DNA of 64,000 bases from Planctomycetota bacterium (GTDB lineage Bacteria > Planctomycetota > GCA-002687715 > DRQF01): positions 5,178 through 69,177 of the forward strand of contig JALTLO010000197.1 of assembly GCA_027001995.1 (NCBI GenBank), written 5' to 3'. Below the pieces are notes generated by a model. The model worked only from the letters and a program-made list of their open reading frames with translations, searched no databases and was not told the origin of the DNA. How positions within the stretch are numbered: the stretch's first letter is position 1; every line of letters starts with the position of its first letter. Positions 7,955 through 18,773 of this stretch are shown here, one piece after another. The position numbers and the translations under genes are program-made.

Positions 7955-9445
7955 GTGGCACACCCCATTCGAATCTACAGTACATTGGAACGAAAGATCG
8001 TCGATTTTGCACCCATCGAAGAAGGTAAGATCGGTCTCTACATTTGTGGTATGACCGTCTACGATCATGCTCACATTGGCCACGGGCGTTTCCTTATTAT
8101 TTTCGATTCCTTCGTGCGCTATCTTCGTAATCGAGGATGGGATGTGACCTACGTTCGTAACTTCACGGATGTGGATGACAAAATCATCAATCGGGCCAAT
8201 GAATTGGGAGAAGACCCTTTCGAATTTGCCGAGAAGTACATCACTGCTTTTGGCAAAGATAGTAGCGACATGGGGCTCTTAGCTCCCGATCGAGAACCTC
8301 GTGTCACCCAATCCATTGACATCATTCAAGCGATGATCAAGAAAATGGTTGAGAAGGGGCACGCCTACACTTCCGAAGGCAGCGTTTGGTTCAACGTTCG
8401 TAGTTATCCTGACTATGGGCACCTTTCCGGCCAGAAGATCGACGAGATGCGGAGTGCCGACGAAGCGAAAGGCAAGAAAGACCCAGCCGATTTCGCACTA
8501 TGGAAGGCGGTGAAACCTGGGGAACCATCTTGGGACAGCCCTTGGGGGCCTGGAAGGCCCGGTTGGCACATCGAGTGTTCAGCTATGGCTCTCGACACAT
8601 TGGGGGAAACCATCGATATTCACGGTGGGGGCTTAGACTTAGTCTTTCCCCATCATGAAAATGAGGTGGCCCAATCGACCTGTGCCAATGGAGCGCGCTA
8701 TGCCCGTCATTGGATGCACAATGGGCTCCTGACCATGGGAGGCGGTCAGAAAATGGGCAAGAGCTTGGGCAACGTCATCAACATTCAAGTTGCGTTGTCC
8801 AAGTTTCCCGCAGAGGCTTTGCGTCTCTATTACTTGCAGAATCAATATCGTTCGCCTCTTCCATGGAGCGAAGAAGCATTACCCGCTGCCCTGAGTATGC
8901 TTTCCCGAATGTATGACGCCCTCGAAAAAGCGGAAGCTATGCAAGGTGCGGAACCCATCGATCAGCTTGTGGTTGACTTGGGAGAGGACGCCAAGCGTGT
9001 TGTTGAGTTGGGAGAGGGCTTCGCTGAACGCTTTCATGCCGCCTTGGACGAAGACTTCAATACGGCTCAAGCCCTTGGTGTGGTCTTTGAACTGGCTCGC
9101 GCTGTCAATCGCTTTGCCAATCACAAGAAGGCGAAGAAGCGAGGGGGGCCTGTTGTGGCGGGAGCTATAGCGGCCCTCCGCTCCTTAGCACCGAATCTAG
9201 GGCTTCTACAAATGGACGTTGAAGCATTCCAGGAAGAAGTCAAGGACAAGCGTCTTGCCGATATGGGGCTCTCCAGGGAGGCGGTCGAAGGCAAAATTCA
9301 AGCGCGCAATGATGCCCGCAGCGCCAAGGAGTGGGCCAAGAGTGATGAGCTGCGTTTGGAATTGGAGAAAATTGGTGTTCTTCTGAATGACACGGCTGAG
9401 GGTGTCACTTGGAGGTTGCGCCTCACCGATGAATCGGGTTCTTGA
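7955..9445 (+). CDS. cysS: Cysteine--tRNA ligase
   Basis: CGMTVYD..HIGH, DFALWK, GRPGWHIECS, HGGG.DL.FPHHENE and KMGKS (KMSKS variant). Probable GTG start at 7955. Confidence 0.97.
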   Translation: MAHPIRIYSTLERKIVDFAPIEEGKIGLYICGMTVYDHAHIGHGRFLIIFDSFVRYLRNRGWDVTYVRNFTDVDDKIINRANELGEDPFEFAEKYITAFGKDSSDMGLLAPDREPRVTQSIDIIQAMIKKMVEKGHAYTSEGSVWFNVRSYPDYGHLSGQKIDEMRSADEAKGKKDPADFALWKAVKPGEPSWDSPWGPGRPGWHIECSAMALDTLGETIDIHGGGLDLVFPHHENEVAQSTCANGARYARHWMHNGLLTMGGGQKMGKSLGNVINIQVALSKFPAEALRLYYLQNQYRSPLPWSEEALPAALSMLSRMYDALEKAEAMQGAEPIDQLVVDLGEDAKRVVELGEGFAERFHAALDEDFNTAQALGVVFELARAVNRFANHKKAKKRGGPVVAGAIAALRSLAPNLGLLQMDVEAFQEEVKDKRLADMGLSREAVEGKIQARNDARSAKEWAKSDELRLELEKIGVLLNDTAEGVTWRLRLTDESGS

Positions 9446-10738: not shown

Positions 10739-12241
10739 CTAACAGGACTCGGCCTTTTTTAACGCTAAGTGATCGCCCGAGTGGTTTTCAAAGGTTTGTT
10801 CCCGTTCTCGGGGAAGAAGAGATCCTAAGAGTAGTAGCAGCCCAGGTGAGATTTGGAGCAATAGGCGTGGAGCTGCGGTTTGCAGATGCCAAACTTGTTT
10901 CGGAATAGCAACCATCACCAAGAATACGGCGCAGAATTGTCCCAGGGCCGTTAACAGCAAGAAAAGATTCCTGCGGGTGCGTACCGGTTGGCCCACCGCG
11001 GCTACCAACATCAAAATCATAAGTCCCGGCCAGAAAAGGACCCAATTTTGTGCCGTTCGGTTGGCCGGAGGGTGTTGGTGCCAGAATCCGAAACCCGAGC
11101 GATTTGTGAGCTCATCCCCAAAGAAGGTGGCGGCTATCCTCCAGCGCTCTCCGTCTTTAAGGGCATCGATGACCGGGGCTGCCCCTTCTTGCGTTAGGAG
11201 GTTTGGCGGCGCCCAGTTGTTCTTGAACAAATACCAGGCTGCGAATCCAGGCGCTGCTGCCAGAAGAATCTGCATCATCCTCAGCATGAAGCCTCGTCGT
11301 TGTGATTTTCCGAGGAGGGAGAGGAGGAGGAAAAGGGAAAGGGCTACAAGGGCGTACATCCAACCCTCGTTTTTGATCCAAGGAAGAAGGCCAAGAAAGA
11401 AGCCAGCAATCCAAGGGGAAGCACTTGTGGTGTTTGGGCCTTTGAGAAGCAAAGCCAACGAACCGAGGGTGATGGCGTTGAGGGCGGCTAAGATAACGTC
11501 CGCATATTGATAGGCTGCGATGGTCACGAAATGAGGGGTGGCACAGGCGATAGCTGCGAGAACGAATCCGGCTGTGGCGCCACTGAGTCGTTGTCCCATA
11601 CGCAACAAAACAAAGACGAAGGCCACGAACCCGAAGTAACCTACGACTTGAGAAATCACGTATGGCTCAGAGCCAGCGATTCTGAATGCCGACGCCAAAG
11701 TCCCGGGGAGCATGTGTGGATATTCTGGATGTCCTAGGGGCATGAGAGCTAACTTGTCATGCATGTTTCCATCAAAGCGTCCCATGAGTCGCCCAAGAGC
11801 GTTCCAAATGGCAAAGCCATCCCAACCGCCTGTCGGCATCACATGGCTACGTATCCAAAATAGTGTCGATGACCATAGAAACATGATGAGAGCCAAGATG
11901 CCACAGGCGTGACGATAGGGGCTGGGCTTGTCAATGGACTTGTCAATGGACTTGACAATGGACTTGACAACGGCTTCTTCCTTGCGAAGCCAATAGAAGG
12001 CACCTGCCCCCAGCAACAAGATTGCCCATGTCCCAGCGAGTGAGGGCGTCGAGGGGAAATGATCGGTGAACCATTTGACATAGAAAAAATGAAGGGATGT
12101 GACAGCCATAGCGATCAGCGGGCCGAAGGCCAAGGAGTCAACAAGGCGTTCCCAAAGAGAACAACTAGAGCGTCTTGCCATGGACGCAGCAACCAAGAAT
12201 CCTGGGAGGAAAATGAGGCAAAGGCTCCAAATGACGCTCAT
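10739..12241 (-). CDS. Polytopic membrane protein, GT-C (ArnT/PMT-like) glycosyltransferase candidate
   Basis: Many TM segments; WDGFAIWN, YP, YADV, KNEG and a late R motif. Confidence 0.6.
   Translation of the reverse strand: MSVIWSLCLIFLPGFLVAASMARRSSCSLWERLVDSLAFGPLIAMAVTSLHFFYVKWFTDHFPSTPSLAGTWAILLLGAGAFYWLRKEEAVVKSIVKSIDKSIDKPSPYRHACGILALIMFLWSSTLFWIRSHVMPTGGWDGFAIWNALGRLMGRFDGNMHDKLALMPLGHPEYPHMLPGTLASAFRIAGSEPYVISQVVGYFGFVAFVFVLLRMGQRLSGATAGFVLAAIACATPHFVTIAAYQYADVILAALNAITLGSLALLLKGPNTTSASPWIAGFFLGLLPWIKNEGWMYALVALSLFLLLSLLGKSQRRGFMLRMMQILLAAAPGFAAWYLFKNNWAPPNLLTQEGAAPVIDALKDGERWRIAATFFGDELTNRSGFGFWHQHPPANRTAQNWVLFWPGLMILMLVAAVGQPVRTRRNLFLLLTALGQFCAVFLVMVAIPKQVWHLQTAAPRLLLQISPGLLLLLGSLLPREREQTFENHSGDHLALKKAESC
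11927..11970. repeat. 12-bp in-frame tandem repeat, about 3.7 copies (VKSI/DKSI)
   Basis: CTTGTCAATGGA x2, then CTTGACAATGGA and CTTGACAA. Confidence 0.9.
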
Positions 12242-12902: not shown

Positions 12903-15083
12903 CTACTTTTTGGTGCTCGTTTGAGAGAATTGTCGAAGTTGAACCATGGTTCCTGGGATCGTCGGGAAAGCTATGCTTGTATAGGTTGGAGTCTTCTTTC
13001 CAGTGGTGATCTCTGCCCTAAAACGACCATGGTCGTCAATCTTGATTTCTTGATGAAGGGGAGATGGAGCGCTTCCCAAGAAAGTGACACGTATGGATTT
13101 TCCTGGAACTTCCTTCGTGATTGTTCCTTCAATATGAAACACAGTTTTCTTGTTCTTGTTTTTGTTCGGGAAACGGGAGAAAAAAGTGACTCGAAGGCCA
13201 GGGGCAGTGGCGGTGAGGGTGAGGCCTTTTCGGGACGACTGCTCCGTTGAGGCATGGGAATAGGAAAGCATCCCTTTCATGCCATCATGTTCAAATTGCT
13301 GAAGCTCTGCCGTCGATAGCACCCTCTCGCTTGATTCGCCTTCTTGATTCCAGGTATTCACGCTTGCGATGATGATAAATGTTCCAAGCAAAACAAGAAG
13401 TGGAGAGATGACAGAAGGCGGCAAGATATTGCGCCGCCCCAAAGAAAGGGCAACCCAAGCATCGGCCCAAGATGAAACAACCCATGCCGGGAGTAAGAGG
13501 TAGGCGGGGAGAAGGTAATTTGGTCCAAAGGACGGGATGTAGTAAACGTCAATCATGGCTACTGCGGCGGCCCGCAGGATGAAAGCGAACCCCAAGACCA
13601 TTGGCACGATCGTTGCCGGACGAAATCCCTTTCTAAAGCCACAAACAACAACAATGACGGAAGCCAACAGGGCTAAGATCGCGAATGAGAACTGATATTT
13701 TCTTGCGCCGTTGAGCATCCACAAGGCGACGTTTTTTCTGCGGAAGAAGTCTATATCAAGGTGGGAACTTGGTTCTCCAGTCACGCGGCGGGCAATGGCG
13801 ATGTCTTCTGTGGTACCATAGTCCTTTGGGATGATCCCTCCCAGTGTCACGGGGCTTACATCAACATGGATGGCTCGGCCCATGTTGGTAAACGTCCTCA
13901 AAACGGTGGGCCACCAGAAATCTTGCCTAAACCTTGGTACCAGAGAGTCTCGGCGCTCGTCCGCTGGTATCTTTCCAGAGTCGCAGGCATCGTTGATTTG
14001 CGTGGCTAACCGCAAATAGTAATCCCTTGCTAGTTTCGCGTTCTTATGGTGCCCCATACGGGATGCTGCGCGTCGAACCACCCATTTGAGGATATCGAGT
14101 GTTCGTTCATTGTTCTCCGTAGGAGGATGGCTGTTCCGATTTGTTGGTCCGCTTAAGATTGGCAGGATTTCTGCGAATGCCGGACTAACTTTGGCGATGT
14201 CCTCCATCGTTTCCCGGTCCACAGGTTCGTAAGGCAATCGGGATTTAGGCTTGACTCTCTGAATTGCTCCGATGGCTGCAACGAATTCAGGAGATTTCAA
14301 TTCGGTTTCTATGGCAACGCCATAGTGCTTGCGGTTGAGTTCCATGATCCCGACTCTCCCGCCAAAAAGGAGGCCAATGGGGAGAATGGAGAGAAGTAGA
14401 ATTGTGGCCGCTGATCGAACGCGGCTTTCATTTGGACCCGGATTGACCAGAATGCCTGCGACTGCCATCAAAACGAATGCCGGGATGATCCAGATGCCTT
14501 CTTCTCGGATTTGCCAATAGAGTGCCAATGAGAGGCCAAGCCCTATGGAGCAAATAAGACGTCTTTTGATTCCTCCCGGGATCACTGTGCCTAAGCCGGC
14601 GCATAGGACAATGATAGTCAGGCTGGGATAGATAGATTCTCTCAGCACATAGGCCATGCTTCCAGCGCTCAGTGTAGCAGGAGAAAAGAGGATCGCTCCT
14701 AGGGCACACAGGCGGAAGAGGAGGCCAAATCTAACGAGGGACATGACCGCAAAAAGTGCTAACGATGCGGCCACAAGCAGGAGATCTTGTCCAAGTCGCG
14801 TGGAAATCCCGACTAGTTTGAAGCCAGCCAAGATGATGGGATATCCAGGCATCTTGGCGAGAGTTGTGTGGTCGTAGGGACCCAGCCACTGGCCTTCCGT
14901 CATGAAATTGGCTGAGCTTGTATAGAACTCATCGTCGACCTGAAGGTGGGCTCGGATAGAGATGGGGGCGTTCGCTGTGAGCAGAAGCCTCAATGAAATC
15001 AAGACAATGATGACCCACCAAGTGGCCCAGGGGTTTTTGTATCCTTGCTCATTCGAGTGGTCTTTGGATTTTTCCAGTGGCAT
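12903..15083 (-). CDS. Polytopic membrane protein, GT-C-like, with a soluble C-terminal domain
   Basis: DDEFY..A...GQWLGPYD..TLAK.PGYP and REE motifs; multiple TM helices. Confidence 0.6.
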   Translation of the reverse strand: MPLEKSKDHSNEQGYKNPWATWWVIIVLISLRLLLTANAPISIRAHLQVDDEFYTSSANFMTEGQWLGPYDHTTLAKMPGYPIILAGFKLVGISTRLGQDLLLVAASLALFAVMSLVRFGLLFRLCALGAILFSPATLSAGSMAYVLRESIYPSLTIIVLCAGLGTVIPGGIKRRLICSIGLGLSLALYWQIREEGIWIIPAFVLMAVAGILVNPGPNESRVRSAATILLLSILPIGLLFGGRVGIMELNRKHYGVAIETELKSPEFVAAIGAIQRVKPKSRLPYEPVDRETMEDIAKVSPAFAEILPILSGPTNRNSHPPTENNERTLDILKWVVRRAASRMGHHKNAKLARDYYLRLATQINDACDSGKIPADERRDSLVPRFRQDFWWPTVLRTFTNMGRAIHVDVSPVTLGGIIPKDYGTTEDIAIARRVTGEPSSHLDIDFFRRKNVALWMLNGARKYQFSFAILALLASVIVVVCGFRKGFRPATIVPMVLGFAFILRAAAVAMIDVYYIPSFGPNYLLPAYLLLPAWVVSSWADAWVALSLGRRNILPPSVISPLLVLLGTFIIIASVNTWNQEGESSERVLSTAELQQFEHDGMKGMLSYSHASTEQSSRKGLTLTATAPGLRVTFFSRFPNKNKNKKTVFHIEGTITKEVPGKSIRVTFLGSAPSPLHQEIKIDDHGRFRAEITTGKKTPTYTSIAFPTIPGTMVQLRQFSQTSTKK

Positions 15084-15173
15084 ACAGCTGGTGTTTCCTC
15101 AACAGCGATAAACTGAGCGTCAAGAGTTCTTGAACGCCTTGGGTCGTTTCCTACTCAGGGCCTTGTTTATCTA

Positions 15174-16466
15174 TCACCCAGGAATCAAGGGTAGCTCAAT
15201 TCTTTGAGGCTTTCCATTGCGCCAAAACTTGATTCTTATGGTTTGCCCGACCTGGCATCGGAGTCGGATCCATGCGTGGAAATGATCGGCGTCTCGGAAG
15301 TCTGATTTGCTGTTGATTGATAGGACGATGTCGCCTTTGCGGAGTCCAGCTTTCTTGACATTGGCGCCGAGAGATTTCCTTGGGCCCCAATCGACGATGT
15401 AGTCCACGCGCATAGCAAAAGGATATTCCTCTAAGCCGAGCTCCTTCTTTGTTTCTTGAGAGAGAATCTGGCCGCCGAATCCTGGGGCTGGCGACAATTC
15501 CCATTTCATCGGGCGCCAAGAATATTCGAAGGGGCTGATTCGCTTCCAACCATCTTTGAGCTTCAGCTTGAACGTCTTCAAGCTGTCGCCCCGAGACCAA
15601 TGAGTGGTGAGAGTGGTCCTTGCTTCTTTGGTTTTATGAAGAGCGTGTTGGAAATCAGCGATGCTAAAAACTCTCTTGTTTTCGATGCTGAGTAGTTTGT
15701 CGCCGGGCCTAAGACCAGCCACATGGGCGCTGCTTTTCGGGGTGACAGACATAAGGGTCGTTTGATGGATGGGGTCCATTTCTATGCCAATTTGTCGAGG
15801 AGCTGGGTAGACGAATTTCTTTTCGGGAGTCCAGGTCTTCTTGGCGATGGCTTCCCGTCGTAATGCTGGGAAAATGCTATGACAATGGACACATTCTAAT
15901 TTCTTACCACGGACCCCTTTGGCAAAGGCAGGCACGTCAAAAATCGTCGTTCTGGTATTCGGGATGTCTGGTTTCTTCTTGGGGCGAGATTCTGTTTTTT
16001 TGTGGATTCGATGGTTGTCTCTTAGCTCCCTGAGCCATGCTGCAATTGCCCTTGGCTGTTGCCAAAGGTTCGCGCTGGATTTGTCGCGCCCCCCAAAGCG
16101 GCTGACAAGATTGCCGTCGGGGCTGTGAACTGTCATAGCGAAGGTGAGATCGTAGTCGAATTGGAACTTATTGAGGTCAACAGTACTCATGTCGGTGATG
16201 CGCAGACAAACGAAAGATCTGAGGAGTGCTGTCAATGTCTTGTTCGGTCGGAGCAACTGCTCGTCGGTGGATTTGCAATCCCTTCAGGGTACTCAGCGAA
16301 AGACTGTGAGCATGGGTTTCTGTTGGGCTTGGGATTTCTCTTCCGCGGCCTGCAAGTTGGACATCCAAGAGAATCTTTGGGCGCAAACGGACATGTTCAT
16401 GGCGAACAGGGCGAAACCGACCATAAGAACATGAGAAAGGAGCTTTTTCGGACCTGATTTGAACAT
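15174..16466 (-). CDS. Exported thioredoxin-like (Trx7-type)/CxxCH/double-PDZ selenoprotein, 430 aa, with two in-frame UGA codons (U58, U61)
   Basis: The track ORF (TTG at 16256) extends in frame to ATG 16466 (AGGA upstream) through TGA at 16295-16293 and 16286-16284. Translation: MFKSGPKKLLSHVLMVGFALFAMNMSVCAQRFSWMSNLQAAEEKSQAQQKPMLTVFR-U-VP-U-RDC. It also has FQFDYDL, RFGGRD, CVHCH and two GL..GD PDZ motifs. Confidence 0.85.
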
Positions 16467-16713
16467 GGAGTTTTTTCCTGGGGCTGGGCTTCGTCTCTAA
16501 GAAAGTACCTGGTCATGGGGGAGCCGCAAGGGATTCTTGAGCTGACTTCGTGGCTCTAATTCTTTTTTCGACACTTGGGCCGTCTCTCATTCATGATCTT
16601 CCCCGTCTGCAGAGCGCCCAAGCTCAACGTCCACCGCTGCTCGCTTTTGCCCGATGCTGGTCCAATCACTTTGATCTCATGAAAAAAATGGGCCCTGAGG
16701 TTATGATTTCCCC

Positions 16714-17667
16714 ATGAAGAAAATCACTGGAATTCTATTGTTGTCATTTTTGGCCCTTCATCCATCTCTCTACGCCCAGTGAAGTGGCTGAACCACAGGA
16801 GCGCCGTCGGTCGGACGGCCTACAAGTATTGAAACAGAAGCGGGTGGTTTTCGCGTTGCCGCTTGGGGAACGTTTGAGCGTCGAGATCGCCTTTATGTCG
16901 GCTCACAACGGACGAATGACCCTTCTGGAGAATCCGTAGAGATTGCCCGGGCGCTGCTGGAATTGGAGTACGCCATCGATTCCAACCTGACGGTCTCGGC
17001 GATCTTTTCTTACATTGACATCGAACGTCGTCTACCGGGGGCCAACTTGCGCGAGCGAGTTTCTGGCATTGGTGATACCCAGCTGATTTTTCGTTGGACC
17101 GCAATCGATAGTGGATTGACGGAGGAAGAGCAAATCCCGTGGTTGGCTGATTCCCCTCGTTTTCGCTTGCGGGTGAGTTTTGGCGTCTCTCTTCCGACGG
17201 GCAAAACCAGGTCGCCGAATTTGAGCATTGGCGGCACGCCTACGTCACTTCTGCAAACGGGGTCCGGGACATTTCAGCCCCTTCTGGGTGTTGGGACGCG
17301 ATGGGACTGGGGCGGTATTGCGCTTACCGCAGATGTGCAGTCGACTTTGCCGTTCTACGAAAATGACAATGACTTTCAGCAAGGTGTGTCTATCAACTCG
17401 AGTTTGGGATTCGAATTGAAACCCACAGACGGGTTGATTCTTCGCATCGCGATCGATGGAGACTATCGCAAACGTGATTTGCAATTTGGCGATCGCATTG
17501 AACCTGGAGGAGGTTTGCGGGTGGCGGCCCATCCCGTCATTATTTGGTCGCCTATTGAAGAACTGCAGATTTTCGCTGGTGTGGTTTTACCGTTTTATCG
17601 GAATGTCCCACAGCGTCTCCTGGACACCGCCGCCAAAGTTGAGTTTGGCGTGTCATTCGTCTTCTGA
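16714..17667 (+). CDS. Probable outer-membrane beta-barrel (COG4313/MetA-pathway-transporter-like) selenoprotein, 317 aa, with N-terminal UxxU (U23, U26)
   Basis: ATG 16714 gives MKKITGILLLSFLALHPSLYAQ-U-SG-U-TTGAPS..., in frame with the track ORF at 16963, with TGA at 16780-16782 and 16789-16791. It has SGIGD, GVSLPTG and QTGSGT motifs, amphipathic strands and a C-terminal Phe (GVSFVF). Confidence 0.82.
16803..16819 (+). promoter_or_regulatory. Candidate bacterial SECIS element
   Basis: GCCGTC-GGTCG-GACGGC is a perfect 6-bp stem separated from the second UGA by an 11-nt spacer, with a GGUC-containing loop like the FDH SECIS. Confidence 0.75.
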
Positions 17668-17807
17668 GACGGAGGTCTCATGATCTGAAGGTCATCGTTT
17701 GAGATCACGGATGGGAGGCAGGGCAGTCTGAGCTGTCCGAGAAAACCCGACCTGGACTCAAAGTTCTTGGCCCACTGAGGTTGGCCCGAAGGTTGATTCG
17801 GGAACTT

Positions 17808-17870
17808 GAAGAAGTCGCAGGCGGTGGTAACGTCCATGTGATTCTTGATGAATGTCCTCCAGGTTTGGCG
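17808..17870 (-). pseudogene. Short remnant of an integrase-core (rve-like) IS transposase
   Basis: QTWRTFIKNHMDVTTACDFF resembles the TW.TFL..H......CDFF motif preceding the DDE core; no rest of the gene is present. Confidence 0.55.
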
Positions 17871-17939
17871 AGCGTGATTCACGCAACAAAGCTCTGAAGT
17901 TCTTTCTCGGACATCTTGTCCGACCTTGAACTGCATGAA

Positions 17940-18773
17940 TTAGTTGGGCTGAGTGCTGGGGGTGGTCACATAGGGTGGTTGGTTTAGGCCAGCAGGGGAG
18001 GCGGTGAAAATCTCACAGCCGTCTTCAGTTACCGCCAGTGAGTGTTCGAATTGGGCACTCCACTTGTGGTCGATGGTGAGGGCGGTCCAGTTGTCGGCCA
18101 AAATGTTTGACTTCCAATGGCCAAGATTGATCATCGGTTCGACGGTGAAGAACATACCCTTCTTGAGGGTGATGCCTGTTCCCTCCCGCCCGTAGTGATT
18201 GATCTGAGGATCGGAGTGAAACTCCCGGCCTAGTCCGTGGCCACAAAATTCACGGACAACAGAATAGCCCTCTGATTCCGCGATGGTCTGGATGGCGAAG
18301 CCGATGTCTCCAGTCTTGGCCCCTGGCTTGATGCGATCGATCCCGGCCATGAGGCAGCGGTAGGTGCAGTCCACCAATTTGCGCGCTTCTTCGCTGACAT
18401 TTCCCACCAAGAACATACGGCTCGTATCGCCATGCCAGTTGTCCAAAATGGGGGTGACGTCGATATTGATGATGTCTCCATCCTGCAAAATTTGCTCTTC
18501 ATTGGGAATGCCGTGACAGATGACCTCGTTCACTGAAGTGCAAATGGACTTGGGGAAGCCGTGATATCCCAGTGGGGCTGAGGTCGCTCCAGCTTTTTGG
18601 GTGTAAGCTTCGCAGAGGTCGTTTAATTTCTGAGTCGACACCCCTGGAATGACATAAGGTGTGATGTAGTCAAGGATTTCAGCGGCCAAACGGCCTGCTG
18701 CCCGCATACCTTCGAATTCACGTTTGCTGTGAATAATGATCTGTTTGCGATTTGCGAACATCTTCGACCCCAT
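17940..18773 (-). CDS. map: Type I methionine aminopeptidase
   Basis: CTSVNEVICHGIP, DVT, GDTSR, GHGLG..FH, EPM and SAQFEHS motifs. Confidence 0.97.
   Translation of the reverse strand: MGSKMFANRKQIIIHSKREFEGMRAAGRLAAEILDYITPYVIPGVSTQKLNDLCEAYTQKAGATSAPLGYHGFPKSICTSVNEVICHGIPNEEQILQDGDIINIDVTPILDNWHGDTSRMFLVGNVSEEARKLVDCTYRCLMAGIDRIKPGAKTGDIGFAIQTIAESEGYSVVREFCGHGLGREFHSDPQINHYGREGTGITLKKGMFFTVEPMINLGHWKSNILADNWTALTIDHKWSAQFEHSLAVTEDGCEIFTASPAGLNQPPYVTTPSTQPN

Follow-up and report, generated by a model that had tools for sequence, protein, structure and literature searches.

A 64,000-nucleotide (nt) stretch of DNA from a member of the Planctomycetota (GenBank assembly GCA_027001995.1, contig JALTLO010000197.1, positions 5,178 to 69,177; hereafter the window) carries two genes arranged head to head, here named gene A and gene B, each of which reaches a start codon and a signal peptide only if two in-frame TGA codons are read through. 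The explanation we favour, and which we regard as moderately probable on the strength of the sequences and their relatives, is that the pair encodes two separate envelope proteins with two selenocysteines (Sec, U) each: gene A would be an oxidoreductase of the Trx7/PDZ type, and gene B a metal-capturing channel. Family A is already known (NCBIfam NF041199), whereas family B, which comprises apparently unpublished Sec-containing outer-membrane channels, is what appears to be new here.

Both genes are very probably real selenoprotein genes, as judged from sequence, because other Planctomycetota genomes contain the same TGA pairs, relatives have Cys in the corresponding columns, hairpins lie downstream of the TGAs, and the host possesses the Sec machinery. 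On these same grounds the claim of the first-pass annotation, made from the DNA letters of the window, that both are genuine candidates for selenoproteins of the U-x-x-U (UxxU) type is upheld; its coordinates, truncated open reading frames (ORFs), and read-through TGA pairs were all reproduced by re-translation. Under translation table 11, gene A appears in the ORF list only as 15174-16256 (360 amino acids, aa) and 16293-16466 (57 aa), and gene B only as 16963-17667 (234 aa). With TGA translated as U, the two pairs fall within the motifs F-R-U-V-P-U-R-D-C in gene A and Y-A-Q-U-S-G-U in gene B. Alignment of homologues, for which 401 genomes of the phylum were scanned with stops read through, places Cys or a conserved TGA at all four positions save in a few Cys forms of gene B. 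In family A, the U58 column holds U or C in 69/69 TGA-bearing homologues and the U61 column U in all 69, while both hold C in the 10/10 that are free of TGA. In family B, the U23 column holds U or C in 13/13 aligned members, and the U26 column U in 8/8 Sec forms and C in three of five Cys forms, S or A occupying it in the other two. As to the DNA itself, run X2, from another sample in the same study, has a contig in which both gene B TGAs are present without difference; for the TGAs of gene A, coverage comes from run X1 alone, a possible source of the present DNA, and runs X3 and X5 cover parts of the stretch without the TGAs; the metagenome runs containing this DNA are labelled hydrothermal vent.

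The window belongs to contig C197 of a 5.2-Mb assembly (G000 in our numbering) that is 92% complete. The first-pass annotation had named selA, selB, selC, and selD as genes to be expected in such a host, and all four were found above curated cut-offs (selA 511 bits, selD 357 bits, selB 334 bits, tRNA-Sec 68 bits), with selA, selD, and tRNA-Sec clustered on contig C148 and selB on C17; selD itself has one in-frame TGA. ARAGORN identified a single tRNA-Sec (UCA), the weaker matches to RF01852 being ordinary Ser, Leu, Tyr, Gly, and His tRNAs, and the genome encodes one CysRS and one SelB above cut-off. Two Sec residues per protein would be inserted by recoding of UGA through SelB and a selenocysteine insertion sequence (SECIS). 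That the UGAs do not encode Sec, being read instead as Cys by a tRNA-ReC-type system or terminating translation in decaying or mis-assembled genes, we hold to be very improbable. In genomes with UxxU genes tRNA-ReC is frequent, and UGA may accordingly be translated as Cys there (PMC13582414; this and the other sources are cited for the excerpts used), and the local hairpins of gene A are weak, as described below. No sign of such a system was seen in this genome, since it has one tRNA-Sec, otherwise ordinary tRNAs, and one CysRS, although at 92% completeness a second tRNA gene could be unassembled. Against this alternative stand the single tRNA-Sec-like gene, SelB, and CysRS as well as the finding that many genomes preserve the reading frame across the TGAs, together with the signal peptide and every invariant residue; furthermore, the gene B TGAs are repeated in an independent contig, and an outer-membrane barrel without its leader would presumably be useless.

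Gene B falls into a clade, apparently unpublished, of COG4313-type channels bearing a Sec or Cys arm. Its match to Pfam PF13557 (Phenol_MetA_deg) is marginal (23.1 bits against a cut-off of 22), and no NCBIfam model matched at E<=0.01. Forty-five of the 401 genomes match family B at E<=1e-5, and Sec forms occur in ten of them (G000, G287, G242, G231, G002, G320, G030, G024, G133, and G280). The motif reads Q-USGU in G000, G287, and G242, Q-UAGU in G231, G002, G320, G030, and G133, and QG-UAAU in G024. Cys forms read AQ-SCGGC in G034, G187, and G220, and AQ-SCGG followed by S or A in G204 and G133. Hydrophobic leaders end before Q in 13/13 aligned members, and the mature N-terminus would begin with Q-U-x-G-U, or with Q-S-C-G-G-C in the Cys forms. 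The barrel homologue of G280 shows Q-U-U-P-N-U, that is, three in-frame TGAs in five codons (locus L087, G280:C35, ~8060-8080).

Beyond the phylum sample, a word-based search of 5.8 billion proteins with gene B returned two shortened entries only, one of them named "hypothetical protein", and a profile search of 1.84 billion representatives returned 4,754 proteins at E<=0.001, roughly 1,800 of them at E<=1e-10 and 68 at E<=1e-30. Many of the best profile matches begin only at profile positions 38-100, as expected from truncation at TGA, while most of the 38 full-length matches retrieved (no formal tally was made) have a Cys pair directly behind the leader, for example CGGC, CPAC, CxGC, or CC. 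One database relative of the Cys form led only to "hypothetical protein" clusters, commonest in Verrucomicrobiota and Myxococcota. A literature search linking selenoproteins with PF13557 found no paper, with the supplements of primary selenoproteome papers, which lay outside its scope, as a place that could hold the family; a second search combining selenocysteine with outer membrane, beta-barrel, and SECIS yielded only the reviews PMC13188914 and PMC9312934. By term search of the excerpts used, the 2026 review PMC13188914 gives UxxU only for Prx-like proteins, the metal binder NF041115, and the FmdB family, and the only outer-membrane barrel it lists as a selenoprotein there is MtrB/PioB (NF041027). 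With gene B and its relatives shortened or named "hypothetical protein" in public annotation, a Sec-bearing outer-membrane family is invisible to pipelines.

A SECIS-like hairpin follows the TGA pair of gene B (Table 1). In the bacterial SECIS (bSECIS) model (PMC13188914, Fig. 2 legend), an apical loop of 3-9 nt with G in one of the first two positions sits on an upper stem of 4-16 bp, 16-37 nt from the UGA, with a minimum free energy of at most -7.5 kcal/mol. The gene B hairpin conforms to the loop, stem, and energy rules of that legend. Between the second UGA (UGA2) and its stem there are 11 nt, and between the first (UGA1) and the stem 20 nt; because its loop lies 17 nt from UGA2 and 26 nt from UGA1 (own count), the one hairpin serves the spacing rule for both UGAs. 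A hairpin follows UGA2 in 8/8 aligned Sec forms, at 10-13 nt in seven and at 5 nt in G024, where the stem has 11 bp; the stems differ between genomes, and the loops read GGUCG, GGUC, AGUU, GGC, GGA, and CGC. In gene B the hairpin is stronger than all 245 windows of the same size elsewhere in the gene, and in 7/8 Sec forms it ranks in the top 3% of same-gene windows. RNAalifold, applied to a MAFFT alignment of the eight sites, gave a partial 5-bp consensus only, because the loop lengths differ among sites. Two results weaken this evidence: Cys forms also have hairpin potential at the same place (fractions 0.04-0.25), so that the contrast is moderate, and the 71-nt fold of gene B has a z of -0.65, with only the local hairpin standing out.

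The first-pass annotation had read gene B as an outer-membrane channel, and Pfam, AlphaFold2 (AF2), and Foldseek all point to a barrel. The AF2 model, built on the 13-member alignment, has a mean predicted local distance difference test score (pLDDT) of 80.2, with strands from residue 46. Against the PDB, Foldseek matched it to FapF (5o67, E 1.3e-14) and to the COG4313 channel Pput2725 (4rl8, E 3.8e-13, TM 0.77 normalised to target), at a sequence identity to solved structures of ~14-15%. The ~14 residues at the N-terminus of Pput2725 occupy the lumen, into which they fold from the periplasm and which they leave almost shut (PMC4493636). By analogy, the Q-U-S-G-U arm of gene B would lie in or at the channel path.

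A soft-metal role of gene B is likely, because relatives adjoin genes for MerR, MerT/HMA, or UxxU-containing HMA proteins. The first-pass annotation had offered soft-metal capture as one function of the two genes together; the mer-like neighbourhoods of relatives carry that idea for gene B. HMA, MerP, and MerT classically bind soft metals through ligands of this kind, CxxC or UxxU on a flexible arm. In G320 and G030, a Sec-form barrel (UAGU) is flanked by a gene for a MerR-family regulator on one side and one for a CopZ_Nterm/MerT/HMA fusion on the other, the latter a protein found in 69 of the 401 genomes; by coordinates, no more than 2 kb separate this fusion from the barrel in G320, G030, G092, G060, and G296, and ~9 kb in G113. 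The N-terminal pair is missing from a sister subgroup of barrels. Its loci have a merR gene within 1.5 kb on either side in G113, G317, and G141, are followed by an HMA-domain lipoprotein with the motif GVT-U-PI-U in G113, G092, and G317, and have a TlpA-like gene nearby in G026 and G092. The HMA lipoproteins pass the Pfam HMA threshold and reach 20-25 bits against the NF041115 cut-off of 95, and may thus form an unmodelled lipoprotein branch. According to this proposal, thiophilic metal ions (Hg(II)-like, possibly Cu(I), Cd, or Zn) would be captured by gene B on their way across the outer membrane and handed on to periplasmic HMA/MerT partners, such as the genome of gene B itself encodes on contigs C156 and C188.

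A number of findings weigh against this role. In the window, no MerR/MerT/MerP operon was found at gene B, such operons being present in its relatives G320, G030, G092, G060, and G296, and no MerR-type dyad was found in the intergenic region in front of gene B. Metal genes were not found at the five Sec-form loci nearest to gene B (its own and those of G287, G242, G231, and G002), nor by Pfam on crude ORF calls of five high-GC Cys-form loci, where ORF calling is unreliable. MerA was not found above cut-off in the 92% complete genome (TIGR02053 best 312 bits against 454). The regulators score best against TIGR02051 (MerR), at 104-133 bits and below its cut-off of 150.85, and nearly as well against ZntR, CadR, and CueR. 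Finally, residues 1-34 of gene B, which include the arm, are disordered in the AF2 model (pLDDT <50).

Part of this evidence would suit a different function, in which the Sec pair is no metal site and, switched by its redox state, latches the plug of a COG4313-type channel for hydrophobic or sulfur/selenium compounds, the mer-like neighbours reflecting one specialised subgroup only. COG4313 channels are otherwise linked to the uptake of hydrophobic molecules, with an N-terminus that gates the lumen (PMC4493636), most Sec-form loci have no metal gene in the flanks examined, and the hydrothermal vent metagenomes suggest a sulfur-rich setting. We nevertheless find such a latch quite unlikely: two Sec-form genomes hold the barrel between MerR and MerT/HMA, barrels stand close to the MerT fusion in five genomes, UxxU-HMA lipoproteins follow sister barrels, and the arm itself carries the soft-metal ligand set named above. 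Metal capture hence remains our preferred function of gene B.

The genome of gene B also has a mer-like cluster of its own, without a barrel, which is split over two contig ends (L094, G000:C156, 3-1350, and L103, G000:C188, 266-730). C156 carries merR and a CopZ_Nterm/MerT gene that runs off the contig, while C188 starts with the end of an HMA domain, after which come an HMA lipoprotein whose motif GAT-U-QA-U contains two in-frame TGAs and then a TlpA-like thioredoxin (WCVPC). Upstream of its merR lies the inverted repeat ACCCTTTACC-N9-GGTCAAGGGT. The HMA lipoproteins (GVT-U-PI-U, two Sec) downstream of sister-subgroup barrels lie at L035 (2356-2955), L036 (877-1470, minus strand), and L041 (2350-2709). 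MerT/HMA-fusion homologues with one to three in-frame TGAs occur at G058:C20:52275-53378, G067:C495:758-1318, and G010:C36:2101-2694, and probably represent the already catalogued MerT/CopZ selenoprotein in its Sec form.

Gene A is a member of the known Trx7/PDZ family, of which the UxxU form is common but under-reported. It matches NF041199 (Trx7/PDZ domain-containing (seleno)protein) at 364.1 bits (E 7.9e-109, cut-off 300), with residues 33-426 on profile positions 2-389 of 390. The first-pass annotation took both genes to be hidden from annotation; this holds for gene B, for which neither model nor listing was found, and not for gene A, whose family is listed in PMC13188914 and PMC9312934, in both cases as CxxU with one Sec. 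Its domain reading of gene A was borne out. Pfam detects Thioredoxin_7 (PF13899, 36 bits) and PDZ_2 (PF13180, 63 bits in two stretches), the AF2 model is confident (pLDDT 88.6), and Foldseek likens the PDZ tandem to DegQ, DegP, and RseP. The remark on a heme "CxxCH" is supported by a C-x-H-C-H motif that is invariant in 69/69 Trx7/PDZ homologues and may be either a heme or a metal site; a plain heme-c CxxCH would not usually have the additional His that occupies the second x here, and the family name is silent on the motif. In the periplasm, gene A would present a U-x-x-U-x-x-C redox motif, the C-x-H-C-H motif, and a DegP-like PDZ tandem, and it is probably a thiol/selenol oxidoreductase that would hold client proteins with its PDZ domains.

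Family A matches 136 of the 401 genomes at E<=1e-10; the matched stretches contain two TGAs, one, or none. Seventy TGA-bearing loci were retrieved, of which 69 could be aligned at the motif: 36 are UxxU, 33 CxxU, and none UxxC. The TGA-free loci have CxxC in 10/10. A second Trx7/PDZ paralogue in the genome of gene A is of the CxxU type (C-V-P-U-K-N-C) and has the hairpin H2, described next, only (G000:C86:28399-29511, L137).

Within family A, the number of hairpins mostly follows the number of UGAs, which suggests one hairpin per UGA. The usual hairpin of the family, H2 (consensus GACGGGC-AGGUU-GUCCGUC, encoding FDGQVVRP), starts ~18 nt after the second UGA and is common to all TGA-bearing members; energies of -5 kcal/mol or below were obtained in 33/36 UxxU and 28/33 CxxU genes. 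A further hairpin, H1, starts 0-4 nt after UGA2 in UxxU genes, which brings its loop to ~16-18 nt after UGA1 (own count), and reaches -3.5 kcal/mol or below in 28/36 UxxU genes, versus 4/33 CxxU genes. The medians in UxxU forms are -5.0 (H1) and -10.5 kcal/mol (H2), and CxxC genes have neither (n=10). H1 stems vary while the pairing is kept (AAGGAC/GUCCUU, AAGGAGU/GCUCCUU, GGACGC/GCGUUC, AAGGCUU/AAGCCUU); for instance, GGAUU/AAUCC in gene A and GGACU-GCA-AGUCC in the same-genus copy differ by a compensatory change from C-G to U-A. The H1 loops have G at the first or second position, matching the bSECIS model of PMC13188914. UxxU genes, with the usual hairpin further off, would have gained a second one directly after UGA2. 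A quick maximum-likelihood tree requires at least 13 changes of motif type, and among eight independent pairs on supported branches H1 changed in the same way as the motif in 4.6 on average, in the opposite way in 0.3, and showed no difference in 3.0; the test (median p 0.125) is in the right direction and underpowered.

The copy in the window is a poor example of this pattern. Its H2, a weak local version of the SECIS-like H2 of the family, has its loop 25 nt from UGA2 and 34 nt from UGA1, and the H1 loop starts 16 nt after UGA1, so that loops, stems, and spacing fit the bSECIS rules (distances by own count). The energies of -1.8 and -3.8 kcal/mol fall short of the -7.5 of the model legend and are the weakest point for Sec in this copy, and the 66-nt fold does not outdo shuffled sequences (z +0.57), both of which count against Sec decoding here. 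An Rfam scan of 15000-18000 at E<=10 returned no SECIS family and five chance-level matches. A literature search for tandem bacterial SECIS elements found nothing relevant; for UxxU hydrogenases, a single SECIS has been proposed and the matter called open (PMC13582414). The series of no hairpin in CxxC, one in CxxU, and mostly two in UxxU genes offers a testable model for the decoding of two UGAs nine bases apart, and two stacked SECIS hairpins, one per UGA, would, if true, answer the question left open for those hydrogenases.

Do the two genes then form one system, as the first-pass annotation had supposed? The best reading is that A and B are two separate envelope selenoproteins that are neighbours here by happenstance, as their adjacency is found in this genome only. 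In the same-genus genome G287, the orthologue of gene B (65% identity) lies on C192, beside a 1,201-aa ORF without Pfam family and a RecQ-type helicase, and that of gene A (51% identity) on C22; of seven neighbour proteins from the window, none (0/7) was found beside either, that is, both lie among unrelated genes. Families A and B also lie on different contigs in G231, G204, G034, G133, and G187. Conserved linkage, which the synteny check looked for, failed: by tblastn, a Trx7/PDZ gene accompanies one of 44 barrel loci, the one in the window. Moreover, most A genes occur without B, because family A is found in 136 and family B in 45 of the genomes.

A joint system, in which gene A would serve gene B as a dedicated partner in the periplasm and the divergent pair would form one redox or metal unit, appears unlikely to us in view of these data. 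The PDZ tandem of gene A would grip the C-terminal aromatic tail or another part of B, and its UxxU Trx domain would keep the diselenol of B reduced, or form or reshuffle a diselenide. The PDZ tandems of DegP, DegQ, and RseP, which that of gene A resembles, bind protein C-termini, and gene B ends in ...SFVF. The genes are, moreover, head to head, 247 bp apart, and both encode exported UxxU proteins, and TlpA-like ORFs are present in two of 44 barrel loci (L034 and L036) and in the mer-like cluster of the same genome. These nearby Trx-fold genes keep alive a looser idea, which runs counter to a complete separation of functions, namely that family B barrels need some thiol/selenol reductant. We retain the reading of two separate proteins.

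Combining these lines, we tentatively propose, as a possibility that falls short of even odds, that family B consists of multi-phylum channels whose diselenol/dithiol arm would start an envelope soft-metal relay, and that the UxxU proteins of the Trx7/PDZ family would be decoded by two stacked SECIS elements. In such a relay, metal would pass from the barrel to an HMA lipoprotein or MerP-like domain and then to MerT. If true, mer-type systems would gain an outer-membrane component, and mercury-type uptake and resistance would have a selenium-using entry step at the outer membrane, which bears on Hg/Se chemistry in vents and sediments. Gene A alone amounts to an annotation correction inside a known family.

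The features of the pair are compiled in Table 1. Two sigma-70-like matches in the intergenic region point to gene B. The neighbours of the pair in the window (CysRS, M24 peptidase, saccharopine dehydrogenase, and M28/PDZ peptidase) are unrelated to it, and the ORFs downstream of gene A, of 726 aa (12903-15083, minus strand) and 500 aa (10739-12241, minus strand), have no Pfam family at E<=0.001.

Table 1. Positions of the features of genes A and B in the window.
Feature	Position	Strand	Basis or remark
Gene A: putative exported Trx7 / C-x-H-C-H / tandem-PDZ selenoprotein, 430 aa	15174..16466	-	translation with TGA=U
Gene A start and stop codons	ATG 16466; stop TGA 15174-15176	-	translation
Gene A predicted signal peptide, residues 1-29 (...SVCA/Q)	16380..16466	-	read by eye from the translation
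Gene A first in-frame UGA, U58	16293..16295	-	translation and homologue column
Gene A second in-frame UGA, U61	16284..16286	-	translation and homologue column
Gene A hairpin H1 (GGAUU-GCA-AAUCC), 5-bp stem, loop GCA, -1.8 kcal/mol	16269..16281	-	2 nt after UGA2
Gene A hairpin H2 (GAGC-AGUU-GCUC), 4-bp stem, loop AGUU, -3.8 kcal/mol	16251..16262	-	21 nt after UGA2
Gene A C-V-H-C-H motif, residues 192-196	15879..15893	-	heme-c-type CxxCH or metal site
Gene A tandem PDZ domains	15189..15791	-	Pfam PDZ_2, two stretches; Foldseek
Divergent intergenic region between the ATGs of genes A and B, 247 bp	16467..16713		
Gene B: putative 12-stranded outer-membrane barrel selenoprotein, 317 aa	16714..17667	+	translation with TGA=U
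Gene B start and stop codons	ATG 16714; stop TGA 17665-17667	+	translation
Gene B predicted signal peptide, residues 1-21 (...SLYA/Q)	16714..16776	+	by eye; putative cleavage site
Gene B first in-frame UGA, U23	16780..16782	+	translation and homologue column
Gene B second in-frame UGA, U26	16789..16791	+	translation and homologue column
Gene B SECIS-like hairpin (GCCGUC-GGUCG-GACGGC), 6-bp stem, -10.4 kcal/mol	16803..16819	+	hairpin table
Gene B predicted beta-barrel, residues 46-317, conserved LPTG and LQxGxGT motifs	16849..17664	+	alignment, AF2, Foldseek

Among known systems, the NF041199 family is closest to gene A: the match runs end to end, and both have Thioredoxin_7, a pair of PDZ domains, and Sec in the second position of the redox motif. 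The family as listed in the excerpts used of PMC13188914 and PMC9312934 is CxxU, whereas gene A is UxxU, as are 36 of the 69 TGA-bearing members, mostly with the extra hairpin. Gene B, in turn, shares with Pput2725, PF13557, and FapF the 12-stranded barrel and an N-terminal segment ahead of the first strand, which in Pput2725 is the plug of the lumen (PMC4493636). In contrast to COG4313 channels, its clade bears a Sec/Cys pair directly after the leader; no such pair and no metal link was found in the excerpts used of PMC4493636.

With the MtrB/PioB family (NF041027), gene B has in common that an outer-membrane beta-barrel is predicted to contain Sec. MtrB/PioB, in contrast, is much larger, belongs to a different family, is tied to multiheme cytochromes, and is listed with a single Sec and no UxxU (PMC13188914, excerpts used). 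A literature search for mer operons with an outer-membrane barrel returned nothing relevant. Gene B resembles MerP and MerT, the UxxU metal-binding protein NF041115, and the MerT/CopZ fusion-like selenoprotein NF045683 in having a soft-ligand pair on an exported or membrane protein; as in mer systems, its relatives are encoded beside MerR, MerT, and HMA genes, and UxxU is known from an HMA-type metal binder. Unlike MerP and MerT, gene B is a predicted beta-barrel, neither an HMA fold nor a MerT helix bundle; a term search of the excerpts used from the reviews found no outer-membrane component listed for mer systems.

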